Virus record (IMG/VR): IMGVR_UViG_3300028584_001240
Direction: 5' to 3' (one strand)
DNA: 40,279 nucleotides
Source: a virus
Lineage: Duplodnaviria; Heunggongvirae; Uroviricota; Caudoviricetes
Under the pieces are notes generated by a model. It was not told the DNA's origin. It saw only the letters and a program-made list of their open reading frames with translations, and did no database searches. Of the stretch, positions 18,378 through 20,803 are shown in pieces. Made by a program: the position numbers and the translations under genes. Positions within the stretch are counted from its first letter, which is position 1, and every line of letters starts with the position of its first letter.

Positions 18378-18776
18378 TTAAACTTTTGAAGTGATCTTTT
18401 GCTGATTACCCATGAAATTTTTCAAAGTGTTATTGACGTTTACGGTTCTTCGACCATCAAGGTCTTTAGAGTTATAAACATAATAATTACCATCACCATC
18501 TAAAATAAAGATTTCATCAACTTTTTTAGCGTCAATTTTTTTGACAACTTTATTCCAAGATTGATTACCACCAGTAGTGCCTAGTGCAACTTTGTAAGAT
18601 TTTTCATTATCTTTATAACGAGAGCTTTTACACTCCACTTTCTTTAAAACACCATCGGTATCAACAATTAAATCATAATAAGGAGAATGAGTTAAAGGCT
18701 TACTGACAATACATCCTAGTGATGTATAATAAAAGGTTGCAAACGATTCACATGTGTCACCTTGCTCTTTATTCAT
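18378..18776 (-). CDS. PD-(D/E)XK endonuclease resembling group I intron-associated homing endonucleases (I-Ssp6803I type), free-standing
   Basis: QGDTCE...G.IVSKP....YDLIVD......VECKS pattern; GAGG SD before ATG 18776. Confidence 0.72.
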   Translation of the reverse strand: MNKEQGDTCESFATFYYTSLGCIVSKPLTHSPYYDLIVDTDGVLKKVECKSSRYKDNEKSYKVALGTTGGNQSWNKVVKKIDAKKVDEIFILDGDGNYYVYNSKDLDGRRTVNVNNTLKNFMGNQQKITSKV

Positions 18777-18792
18777 AGGCACCTCTATAAGA

Positions 18793-18849: not shown

Positions 18850-18937
18850 TGGCGGAAGCTGTGGGATTCGAACTCACGGGGCTATTACACCCGACAGTTT
18901 TCAAGACTGTTGCCTTAAACCACTCGGCCAAGCTTCC
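18850..18937 (-). tRNA. tRNA-Ser(UGA), CCA encoded
   Basis: Cloverleaf with ACAGT-CTTGAAA-ACTGT anticodon arm, long variable arm and TTCGAAT T-loop. Confidence 0.95.
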
Positions 18938-18956
18938 ATATACGGTATAACTAATT

Positions 18957-19045
18957 TGGTGAACGCACAAGGATTCGAACCTCTCGCCAACCGACCTGTC
19001 TTATAAAGGCGTCCGCTTTACAGGCGGATGACAGGAAATGCGTCC
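18957..19045 (-). ncRNA. Atypical tRNA-Tyr(GUA)-like RNA lacking a conventional D arm
   Basis: 7-bp acceptor GGACGCA/TGCGTTC plus ACCA; TCCGC-CTGTAAA-GCGGA anticodon arm; TTCGAAT T-loop. Only 10 nt lie between acceptor and anticodon stems, and CCTGTC there is complementary to GACAGG 3' of the anticodon arm. Confidence 0.8.
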
Positions 19046-19071
19046 ATTGATGTTACTATTGTATCTAAATT

Positions 19072-19159
19072 TGGCGGAAGCTGTGGGATTCGAACTCACG
19101 GAGCTGTTACACTCGACAGTTTTCAAGACTGTTGCCTTAAACCACTCGGCCAAGCTTCC
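19072..19159 (-). tRNA. tRNA-Ser(UGA), CCA encoded
   Basis: Near-identical to 18850-18937; differs only in the variable arm, including a compensatory G-C/A-T pair. Confidence 0.95.
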
Positions 19160-19180
19160 ATATACTATTTACATCTAATT

Positions 19181-19264
19181 TGGTGGTTAGTGATGGATTC
19201 GAACCACCGTGCCTTTCGGATTGGATTTACAGTCCAACGCAATCAACCGCTCTGCCAACTAACC
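19181..19264 (-). tRNA. tRNA-Tyr(GUA), CCA encoded
   Basis: TTGGA-CTGTAAA-TCCAA anticodon arm, class II variable arm, A73. Confidence 0.95.
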
Positions 19265-19296
19265 ATAAGGTTTTTACATATTTTTTTTCATAAAAT

Positions 19297-19380
19297 TGGT
19301 GGGTGCTGATGGATTCGAACCACCGTGTCTCTCGAAGTCGGTTTACAGCCGACCGCATTCGGCCACTCTGCCAAACACCC
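19297..19380 (-). tRNA. tRNA-Tyr(GUA), CCA encoded
   Basis: GTCGG-CTGTAAA-CCGAC anticodon arm, class II variable arm, A73. Confidence 0.95.
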
Positions 19381-19403
19381 ATAATACTTTTTACAACTAA
19401 ATT

Positions 19404-19491
19404 TGGAGGAAGATGTGAGATTCGAACTCACGGAGCTGTTACACCCTTCAGTTTTCAAGACTGACGCCATCGGCCACTCGACCAATCTTCC
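19404..19491 (-). tRNA. tRNA-Ser(UGA), CCA encoded
   Basis: TCAGT-CTTGAAA-ACTGA anticodon arm and long variable arm. Confidence 0.95.
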
Positions 19492-19544: not shown

Positions 19545-19610
19545 ATTCTATCAACTTCTTTCGTCTTTGTCAACAACTATTTTAAATTATTTTCAACTAT
19601 TTTCTTTTTA
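19545..19610 (-). promoter_or_regulatory. Strong sigma70 promoter of the tRNA operon with AT-rich UP-like element
   Basis: TTGACA (19568-19573), 17 bp, TG-A-TAGAAT (19545-19553); A-tracts upstream. Confidence 0.85.
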
Positions 19611-19663
19611 AATCAACAACTTACATTGTTTTAGGTTGAACTTAACCCTGCCACTATGGACAT

Positions 19664-19696
19664 AAAAAAACCCTCTGAAGGTGGCCTTCAAAGGGT
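19664..19696 (-). terminator. Attenuator terminator hairpin
   Basis: ACCCUUUGAAGG-CCA-CCUUCAGAGGGU (12 bp) followed by a U-run. Confidence 0.88.
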
Positions 19697-19754
19697 CTGA
19701 GATAATTACTATCCAAGAATTCGAGGCCATAACTGACCTCTACTCTGGTCAGTT
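19682..19754 (-). promoter_or_regulatory. Mutually exclusive attenuator hairpins (protector, anti-antiterminator, antiterminator)
   Basis: AACUGACC/GGUCAGUU (19731-19754, overlapping the leader stop); GAGGUCA-GUUA-UGGCCUC (19723-19740); UGGCCUCGAA (19720-19729) complementary to UUUGAAGGCCA (19682-19692) inside the terminator. Confidence 0.75.
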
Positions 19755-19803
19755 AACTAGAATATGATGAATAATAATAGGATACAGCAAATGTAGGTTT
19801 CAT
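19753..19803 (-). CDS. Ser/Tyr-rich leader peptide MKPTFAVSYYYSSYSS (16 aa, below the ORF-track cutoff)
   Basis: ATG AAA CCT ACA TTT GCT GTA TCC TAT TAT TAT TCA TCA TAT TCT AGT TAA. GGAG SD 9 nt upstream and its own promoter. Confidence 0.85.
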   Translation of the reverse strand: MKPTFAVSYYYSSYSS

Positions 19804-19837
19804 TTTGTATTTCTCCACAAAGTAAATAATAGTATCC

Positions 19838-19866
19838 ATTATAACAGCCCGCTTAAAAGAATTCAA
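19838..19866 (-). promoter_or_regulatory. sigma70 promoter of the leader transcript
   Basis: TTGAAT-17-TATAAT with extended -10 TG. Confidence 0.82.
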
Positions 19867-19879
19867 GCGGTATGTTAGA

Positions 19880-20803
19880 TTATTTAAAACTTGTTCTCGT
19901 TGGATCATTCGAAGCTTTCTCAATTTCTTTGAATTGAGTGCTATTTAGTCTTTCTCTAAATATATCATCAACCTTAGTCCTTTTAGCAATAGGAGCATAT
20001 AAGGTGTCATACATATTAGCACACGTATCTATACAACGAACCTTCCAGAAATAGGCATTTTCAAAATCATTAATTTCAAGATATACACCAATAATGTATA
20101 GGGCTACTGTTTTGTTAGTAGGGTAAAGTTTTTGATAATAGTCAACAGCCTTAGCTGAGTTTTTGGTATAGACAAATCCTTTCTTATTTTGATAAGCGTA
20201 TAGAAGAATAAGTTCATCATCAAGAGGGTCACCGACTGAAAGTGATTCTGCCATTGTCATAAAAGCGGGTGCATATTTGATTTGTAGTTGTTCTACTTGT
20301 TTTAGATTTTGGGTATCGTTTTTAAAATATGATTTTTTGGAATCATATAGATCAATAAATGCTTTTTTATTGCCATACTGTAAAGAAAGGTTTAAATAAT
20401 TGAACAAATCATTTAATGCTTCTTGATTTTTAGTTAACGTTTCAAGATCATTGTAACCATTATAAGATTGACCATTTCTAAAAGATTCATCCAAAGTCGA
20501 TATAACCGAAAACTTTGATTGTCTTATAACAAAAGACTTTTCTGAGTTTTTGTAAACTATAGGTTCTCGATTTGCATCTGCTCCATAATAAGCGTTCAGT
20601 AATAGAGAGTAAGCTTCATAAGGGTCTTTTTGTTTTGTTGCTTCGTTTAATGTAGCTTCCAGCACCTGATCAAAATAAACCTTCGCTTTTGTTACATCTT
20701 CACGAACCAACTGGTTGCTGTAATCTACATGAGGATCAGAATCATTACATCCAGACAATGCCAGTAATAAGATAAAGCTTAATACATACTTAATATAGTG
20801 CAT
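19880..20803 (-). CDS. Lipoprotein with Sel1/TPR-like repeats
   Basis: Lipobox LALSGC; Sel1-like KGFVYTKNSAKAVDYYQK and DFENAYFW. Confidence 0.7.
   Translation of the reverse strand: MHYIKYVLSFILLLALSGCNDSDPHVDYSNQLVREDVTKAKVYFDQVLEATLNEATKQKDPYEAYSLLLNAYYGADANREPIVYKNSEKSFVIRQSKFSVISTLDESFRNGQSYNGYNDLETLTKNQEALNDLFNYLNLSLQYGNKKAFIDLYDSKKSYFKNDTQNLKQVEQLQIKYAPAFMTMAESLSVGDPLDDELILLYAYQNKKGFVYTKNSAKAVDYYQKLYPTNKTVALYIIGVYLEINDFENAYFWKVRCIDTCANMYDTLYAPIAKRTKVDDIFRERLNSTQFKEIEKASNDPTRTSFK

Follow-up and report, generated by a model that had tools for sequence, protein, structure and literature searches.

We describe here a candidate leader-peptide attenuator located ahead of a cluster of tRNA genes in the IMG/VR record IMGVR_UViG_3300028584_001240, a stretch of DNA of 40,279 nucleotides (nt; hereafter the window) that belongs to a giant phage-like element with a G+C content of about 30%. 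The leader probably senses the decoding of serine (Ser) and tyrosine (Tyr) codons, and read-through of its terminator would boost a Ser/Tyr tRNA operon that is otherwise driven by a promoter of its own, P2. According to this reading, the element probably makes extra tRNA-Ser and tRNA-Tyr when ribosomes read Ser and Tyr codons slowly. The anatomy of the unit, its conservation, the covariation of its helices and the correspondence between leader codons and tRNAs are apparent from the comparison of sequences presented below.

The unit is encoded on the minus strand and comprises the following features, given in the direction of transcription:

19849-19870, minus strand: hairpin CCGCUU...AAGCGG, read from the sequence, which overlaps the −35 hexamer of promoter P1 and forms the upstream boundary of the conserved module
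19838-19866, minus strand: promoter P1, TTGAAT-17-TG-n-TATAAT, with both hexamers invariant and a different spacer in the related loci L001, L128 and L130
19813-19816, minus strand: Shine-Dalgarno (SD) sequence GGAG, 9 nt upstream of the ATG at 19803, with AGGA at equal spacing in L001
19753-19803, minus strand: leader frame MKPTFAVSYYYSSYSS plus stop, 16 codons, from the ATG at 19803 to the stop codon at 19755-19753
19756-19782, minus strand: Ser/Tyr codon run, codons 8-16, of which codons 8-12 (19782-19768) are likely the sensing codons
19664-19698, minus strand: intrinsic terminator with a 14-bp stem (19698-19668), a 3-nt loop and U7, −20.2 kcal/mol
19545-19573, minus strand: promoter P2, TTGACA-17-TG-n-TAGAAT, with an A/T-rich stretch upstream, between the terminator and the tRNA genes; in L001 its hexamers are invariant and its spacer is divergent
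18850-19491, minus strand: tRNA array of six genes, in the order Ser(UGA), Tyr(GUA), Tyr(GUA), Ser(UGA), an atypical Tyr-like copy, Ser(UGA), the five canonical ones called by ARAGORN and Rfam

The leader frame reads ATG AAA CCT ACA TTT GCT GTA TCC TAT TAT TAT TCA TCA TAT TCT AGT TAA. Following the terminator of the P1 transcript, no second terminator precedes the tRNA genes. The locus therefore has the features of the class of leader-peptide attenuators, namely a short open reading frame (ORF) equipped with an SD sequence near a promoter, a cluster of matching codons, and a terminator before the genes to be regulated. The original prediction, made from the letters of the window, had described a promoter, a GGAG, a 16-codon frame, three alternative helices, a terminator and a second promoter; all of them are where it had placed them, with the details correct wherever they could be checked. 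ARAGORN and Rfam called three tRNA-Ser(UGA) and two tRNA-Tyr(GUA) genes at 19491-18850 and no further tRNA gene in the window, in agreement with the claim that these are the only canonical tRNAs. The sixth, atypical Tyr-like tRNA of the array (18957-19045, minus strand) was called by neither program. Its slot is occupied in L130 (6224-6307) by a canonical tRNA-Tyr(GUA) gene between two tRNA-Ser genes, suggesting that it is a diverged copy of tRNA-Tyr.

The match between the amino acids of the leader and those of the tRNA array is far beyond chance. A run of nine Ser or Tyr codons out of nine occurs a single time in the six frames of the window, at the leader, and comparison DNA of 1.6 Mb, which was enriched for the word TCCTATTATTATTCAT, contained four nine-codon Ser/Tyr clusters. 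A degenerate codon search for S-Y-Y-Y-S-[S/Y]-Y-S in all of IMG/VR returned 39 places, only one of which, a homologue of the leader locus, precedes tRNA genes; the other 38 are low-complexity repeats lying more than 2.5 kb from any tRNA, and this S-Y-Y-Y-S-x-Y-S search of IMG/VR gave no further homologue. Besides the known relative, the DNA patterns TCCTATTATTATTCAT and GGTCRGTTAYGGCCTC, which are over-broad, gave chance matches only. As a control, we used 116 unrelated phage loci with tRNA arrays, among which 22 arrays have a preceding terminator and a small frame. In the 19 of these 22 that cover at most nine amino acids, the best small-frame match to the amino acids of the array was at most 0.36, compared to 0.60 for the whole leader peptide and 9/9 for its run. 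The leader RNA (181 nt) also folds better than 200 out of 200 shuffled sequences (z = −4.9). These results support the earlier description of the locus as having the anatomy of a leader-peptide attenuator whose codons are those of the amino acids carried by the downstream tRNAs. They also bear on an alternative according to which the region has no regulatory function, the terminator insulating the tRNA promoter and the frame with its Ser/Tyr run being a by-product of A/T-rich low-complexity sequence (TATTATTAT). TAT-rich Ser/Tyr repeats do recur in the 38 other IMG/VR matches, and the base composition of the genome would favour them, but none of the 38 precedes tRNA genes. Furthermore, the run is in frame with an SD sequence and an ATG that relatives retain, and conservation is higher across the region than in the genes next to it. 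We thus hold this explanation to be very improbable.

Relatives of the locus were reached through a phosphatase gene and are located on a 1.86-Mb contig (L130), a 604-kb contig (L128) and a 437-kb record (L001, identical to L129). The whole unit, comprising P1, the frame, the helices, the terminator, P2 and an array made only of Ser and Tyr tRNAs, is present in all three. From P1 to the first tRNA gene, L130 is 92-100% identical to the window, compared to about 70% for the upstream and flanking genes, and its leader encodes the identical peptide with one synonymous change. The leader peptide of L001 is MKTTLMTTSYYYSYYSH; its N-terminal half has diverged, and an in-frame 3-nt insertion leaves the frame open. 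A Ser codon (TCA) is replaced in L001 by a Tyr codon (TAC) through two base changes, with the Ser/Tyr block kept, and 17 nt (AUCCUAUUAUUAUUCAU) are invariant in all relatives (window, L130 and L001/L128). The retention of an SD sequence (GGAG or AGGA) and of the Ser/Tyr block next to a diverged N-terminus with an in-frame indel look like signs of translation. The array follows the same rule: L130 has Ser-Tyr-Tyr-Ser-Tyr-Ser, and L001 (1708-2574) has Ser(CGA), Ser(GCU), Tyr, Tyr, Ser(UGA) and Ser(AGA), so that the Ser anticodons differ and the amino acids are still Ser and Tyr only. The two genes upstream of the unit in the window are missing from L001 and L128, and similarity begins at the P1 hairpin (window position 19888 in the comparison with L128), suggesting that leader and array travel as one module. 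The conserved Ser/Tyr run and the covarying helices that the original prediction had proposed to look for in related genomes were both found, in the L130 and L001/L128 lineages.

Two features of these loci deserve separate mention. The Ser anticodons have diversified in the L001 lineage, including the unusual AGA, and are UGA three times in the window lineage; tRNA-Ser with A34 is uncommon in bacteria. The hairpin overlapping the −35 hexamer of P1 shows compensatory changes, being a 10-bp perfect inverted repeat in L001 (CAGCUUGAAU...AUUCAAGCUG) and containing a G-U pair in L130. The hairpin lacks a U-tract and could be an RNA 3′-end hairpin of the upstream gene or an operator.

Between the Ser/Tyr run and the 3′ arm of the terminator, the leader RNA can form a series of mutually overlapping helices:

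19741-19764, minus strand: helix X, UAUUCU of codons 14-15 paired to AGAGUA of the H1 loop, and included in the RNAalifold consensus; −4.3 kcal/mol in the window, and 9 bp with −9.8 kcal/mol in L001
19730-19755, minus strand: helix H1, UAACUGACC/GGUCAGUUA, 9 bp, whose 5′ arm begins with the stop codon; −12.0 kcal/mol in the window, −12.6 in L001
19723-19740, minus strand: helix H2, GAGGUCA/UGGCCUC, 7 bp, which excludes H1 and the antiterminator; −10.9 kcal/mol in the window, −11.8 in L001
19682-19729, minus strand: antiterminator, UGGCCUCGAA (19729-19720) with UUUGAAGGCCA (19692-19682), 10 bp with one bulged A, enclosing a small hairpin; −12.7 kcal/mol in the window, −15.7 in L001

The strand GGUCAG is shared by H1 and H2, the strand UGGCCUC by H2 and the antiterminator, and the latter extends over the terminator's loop and the upper part of its stem. 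The terminator itself is weaker in L001 (−14.9 kcal/mol) than in the window, and the helix energies of both loci are within the range of those of the trp attenuator. As the original prediction had it, H1, H2 and the antiterminator are overlapping alternatives; moreover, they covary, and both alternatives are preserved in L001. In H1, a U-A pair has become C-G and a C-G pair U-G; in H2, one A-U pair has become G-C and another G-U. The best single piece of evidence for a switch is, in our view, the triple change at A70, the partner of U53 in H1 and of U75 in H2: this position is a G in L001 and both of its partners are C. Two changes likewise preserve the antiterminator, A116G in the terminator arm, which eliminates its bulge, and G82U, which restores pairing in a new register. 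The RNAalifold consensus consists of X, H2 and the terminator, and the minimum-energy fold before the terminator 3′ arm is made consists of H1 and the antiterminator, in the window as in L001. The layout would thus be that of a his-like chain with two registers, either X, H2 and terminator or H1 and antiterminator.

Which codons would act as sensors depends on the geometry of the ribosome. Assuming that its 3′ edge lies about 13 nt beyond the first base of the A site, a ribosome stalled at codons 8-12 would mask the RNA to nt 46 at most, thereby disrupting X and sparing the 5′ arm of H1 (nt 49-57). This arm would be covered, in favour of H2 and termination, if the ribosome stalled at codons 14-16 or had reached the stop codon. 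The original proposal that stalling at Ser/Tyr codons lets H1 form would therefore be right for codons 8-12 and wrong for codons 14-16, at which a stalled ribosome would act like one at the stop. The predicted effective codons, UCC UAU UAU UAU UCA, are exactly the invariant block, and UCC is rare in the genome of the element (3.6 per thousand).

We propose the following mechanism. Transcription from P1 would yield a leader RNA of about 165 nt, the 16-codon frame of which would be translated. A ribosome that reaches the stop codon would cover the H1 5′ arm, allowing H2 to form and to lock UGGCCUC; the terminator would then fold and transcription would stop at 19664. A ribosome stalled with one of codons 8-12 in its A site would disrupt X and spare H1. 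Once formed, H1 would leave UGGCCUCGAA free to pair with the emerging 5′ arm and loop of the terminator, and polymerase would read on across P2 into the six Ser/Tyr tRNA genes, adding to the output of P2. The resulting increase in tRNA-Ser and tRNA-Tyr would restore decoding, closing a negative feedback loop. In this scheme, translation of the frame, the kinetics by which one helix prevails over another and how much read-through adds to the output of P2 are inferred.

Comparable leaders occur in other genomes. In the related 437-kb record G001 (L402 = G001:C1:209700-211300, minus strand, 250-560), a leader with seven Thr codons (MHIVKNTTTTTTTQIEAGLVRYCR) and a terminator lie directly before a gene of the threonyl-tRNA synthetase (ThrRS) type, with no promoter between terminator and gene, indicating that the clade uses ribosome-mediated attenuation. 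No convincing Ser or Tyr leader was found at the serS- and tyrS-type genes of G001. Three further leaders are present in IMGVR_UViG_3300034072_000758 (G002; loci L360, L361 and L362), an unrelated 517-kb phage with terminal repeats that was found by a scan for the T arm of tRNA-Tyr, blind to leaders. The first, MTFMSYSHSCSYSHSSKGGF (...SYSHSCSYSHSS...), is followed by two terminators, a short gene resembling histidyl-tRNA synthetase (HisRS) and an array of His, His, Tyr, Tyr, Ser, Val, Ser, Ser, Ser, Cys and Ser tRNAs. The second, MFALRLKLLRKWLRRPKGGTV (...LRLKLLRKWLRR...), is followed by a terminator and lies 37 nt before Arg, Leu, Lys and Trp tRNAs. The third is a 46-codon frame rich in Met, Ile, Asn, Gln, Asp, Phe, Pro, Ala, Val and Thr that precedes Phe, Ile, Met, Gln, Asn, Pro and Asp tRNAs. 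These leaders match their own arrays at 12/19, 13/20 and 23/45 residues, respectively, compared to 1-6 residues for the other arrays. The 3′ ends of the ORFs pair with the 5′ arm of the terminator at −16 to −17 kcal/mol, and two of the leaders end in ...KGG because AAAGGGGGU-type codons pair with that arm. The distance of 37 nt in the second unit leaves no room for a promoter, making tRNA genes the plain target of such units.

Several observations weigh against an attenuator controlling the Ser/Tyr array of the window. In the complete RNA, the terminator is always part of the minimum-energy fold, with either H2 or H1, so that a switch would have to rest on folding kinetics. The complementarity between antiterminator and terminator arm is not unusual relative to dinucleotide shuffles (p about 0.15 in the window and 0.056 in L001). 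Since untranslated window RNA is predicted to fold into H1 and the antiterminator, basal read-through may be high, unlike in trp. As for the codons, the claimed match to the downstream tRNAs holds for amino acids and not for anticodons: AGU (codon 16) is not read by the tRNA-Ser(UGA) of the array, and is replaced by a His codon in L001 despite the tRNA-Ser(GCU) present there, and UCC would be read by tRNA-Ser(UGA) only through extended wobble. The AGU objection loses most of its weight because codon 16 lies outside the effective codons 8-12. Regarding conservation, covariation was assessed with only two really different sequences, and near-identity with L130 extends to the spacer between terminator and P2, so that recent recombination or exchange may be partly responsible. 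Elsewhere in the related 437-kb record, tRNA arrays have no such leader and terminator. Finally, the near-consensus and conserved P2 between the terminator and the tRNA genes implies that the attenuator is not the sole control and would act as a boost rather than as an on/off switch; the caution to this effect in the original prediction was well placed, P2 being both strong and conserved.

Some of these points would fit a stand-alone small gene, that is, a short RNA that encodes a Tyr/Ser-rich peptide of 16-17 residues or acts as a small RNA, and whose position before P2-driven tRNA genes is incidental or co-inherited. The leader has its own strong promoter and strong terminator followed by a separate strong promoter; the constant presence of the terminator in the fold of the full-length RNA and the statistically ordinary antiterminator are also what such a gene would show. 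Yet this explanation does not account for a peptide that uses exactly the two amino acids of the array, for the maintenance of the Ser/Tyr block while the remainder of the peptide diverges, for the covariation of both alternative helices, or for the threefold match between leader and array with other amino acids in the unrelated G002. No maturase or partner gene could be recognized next to the leader. We consider a stand-alone gene unlikely. A reading of the leader peptide as the precursor of a ribosomally synthesized and post-translationally modified peptide (RiPP) was dropped, as no maturase-like neighbour gene was recognized.

The leader could also be a genuine Ser/Tyr-sensing attenuator with another output, such as interference with or occlusion of P2, or expression of a gene located after the array, for instance the PD-(D/E)XK gene. 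P2 does lie in the path of read-through, and the window has a protein gene between the last tRNA and the next terminator-like hairpin, within the same unit. However, the PD-(D/E)XK gene is missing from L130 and L001, in which leader and array are kept, and the G002 leader located 37 nt from its tRNAs without room for a promoter points to tRNA as the regulated product. This alternative seems to us quite improbable, and we continue to favour a boost of the tRNA operon by the attenuator.

Leader-peptide attenuation is a textbook mechanism, familiar from operons of amino-acid biosynthesis and from a small number of synthetase genes. Its use on tRNA genes was not encountered in the literature, full-text searches having yielded no publication on leader-peptide control of tRNA genes. 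The closest relative in architecture is the his leader of enterobacteria (hisL, Rfam RF00514), with which the Ser/Tyr unit shares a short frame, translated in hisL, a run of regulatory codons and a chain of overlapping helices in two registers. The match to the Rfam His_leader model reached 30.4 bits (E = 0.047 on 5 kb and 0.0028 on 301 nt), below the gathering score of 49 bits, and the leader is therefore not a member of this family. It also differs from the his leader by its two amino acids, its phage-like genome, the tRNA genes rather than biosynthetic enzymes downstream, and the second promoter after the terminator. The thr leader (Thr/Ile) and the ilvGMEDA leader (Ile/Leu/Val) sense several amino acids through mixed codons of a single leader. 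The Ser/Tyr unit would resemble them in this multivalent sensing, but they control amino-acid synthesis whereas its output would be decoding tRNAs. E. coli pheM-pheST and the G001 Thr unit are likewise cases of leader-peptide attenuation of a translation component; the Thr unit has a similar terminator (…TTTTTTTATGC), but would regulate a protein gene and has no promoter between terminator and gene. T-box riboswitches are also transcription attenuators that are tied to tRNA charging or supply and control translation-related genes. They bind uncharged tRNA directly without translation, whereas the Ser/Tyr unit has a predicted translated frame, and no T-box match was obtained with Rfam on 19600-19900, even at E values up to 10.

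Phage tRNAs are also part of known counter-defences. The tRNA-Lys of phage T5 counters PARIS. When PtuAB of the retron Eco7 degrades the tRNA-Tyr of the host, infection is rescued by T5 tRNA-Tyr made from a strong promoter (PMC11555353). The Ser/Tyr unit resembles this system in having a strong promoter, P2, before copies of tRNA-Tyr. T5 tRNA supply is constitutive, with no sensing element described, whereas the Ser/Tyr unit has a candidate sensing leader, for which a nuclease trigger is suggested by analogy only (PMC11555353). By this analogy, the leader could conceivably serve as an inducible counter-defence, in which destruction of tRNA-Tyr and/or tRNA-Ser by a host nuclease would stall ribosomes on the leader, and the ensuing read-through would boost the sequence-diversified Ser/Tyr tRNAs of the element. 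In bacteria, tRNA-Tyr and tRNA-Ser are both long-variable-arm tRNAs. Nothing in the sequence of the window points to cleavage of tRNAs by a host defence rather than to plain sensing of demand, and we give this extension, put forward in the original prediction, a low probability. If it were true, the genome would sense the attack through translation itself.

The genes surrounding the unit give few further clues. The PD-(D/E)XK (PDDEXK_5) gene (18378-18782, minus strand) lies after the last tRNA, within the tRNA transcription unit and before the next terminator-like hairpin. Its product resembles PDB 2ost, deposited as a 'putative endonuclease', which we take to be the tRNA-intron homing endonuclease I-Ssp6803I. 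Given its absence at this position in L130 and L001, the gene probably represents a mobile insertion. Protein scans of viral contigs revealed no relatives of this protein or of the 307-aa protein encoded upstream of the unit, and the latter also had no tblastn match among phage records. The phosphatase gene located 1.3 kb downstream is closest to lambda phosphatase (lambda-PPase) and ApaH. A tRNA-repair context was rejected: the phosphatase is lambda-PPase/ApaH-like and the PD-(D/E)XK protein homing-endonuclease-like.

Additional RNA features were noted. A conserved AACATGAAGAGTT directly follows P2 (19505-19537, minus strand); in the window, L130 and L001 alike, it would provide a leaderless mini-frame for MKS (AUG AAG AGU stop). 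The leader of the tRNA precursor also contains a small hairpin, which L001 retains with different letters. G001 encodes a tRNA with a CUA anticodon (L211, 10448-10521), amber suppressor-like and called as tRNA-Pyl, and one with a four-base anticodon, agaa (L212, 11162-11237). Repeated modules resembling structured RNAs (e.g. GAGCCUGUC...GGUUGGGUGGUAGCGGUGUCGCGGGC) are located directly upstream of single tRNA genes in G001 (L212, 3700-4060, 7100-7370 and 10300-10560).

If the leader acts as proposed, a virus-like genome would measure the speed of decoding at chosen codons and answer with the tRNAs that read them, thereby placing translational capacity under direct feedback. This would provide a concrete reason for giant phages to keep their tRNA genes in blocks sorted by amino acid, as well as a handle on what phage tRNAs are for, be it codon supply, host shut-off or anti-defence. 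Such short leaders could also serve as a bioinformatic marker of regulated tRNA blocks and as compact tRNA-specific sensors for synthetic biology.

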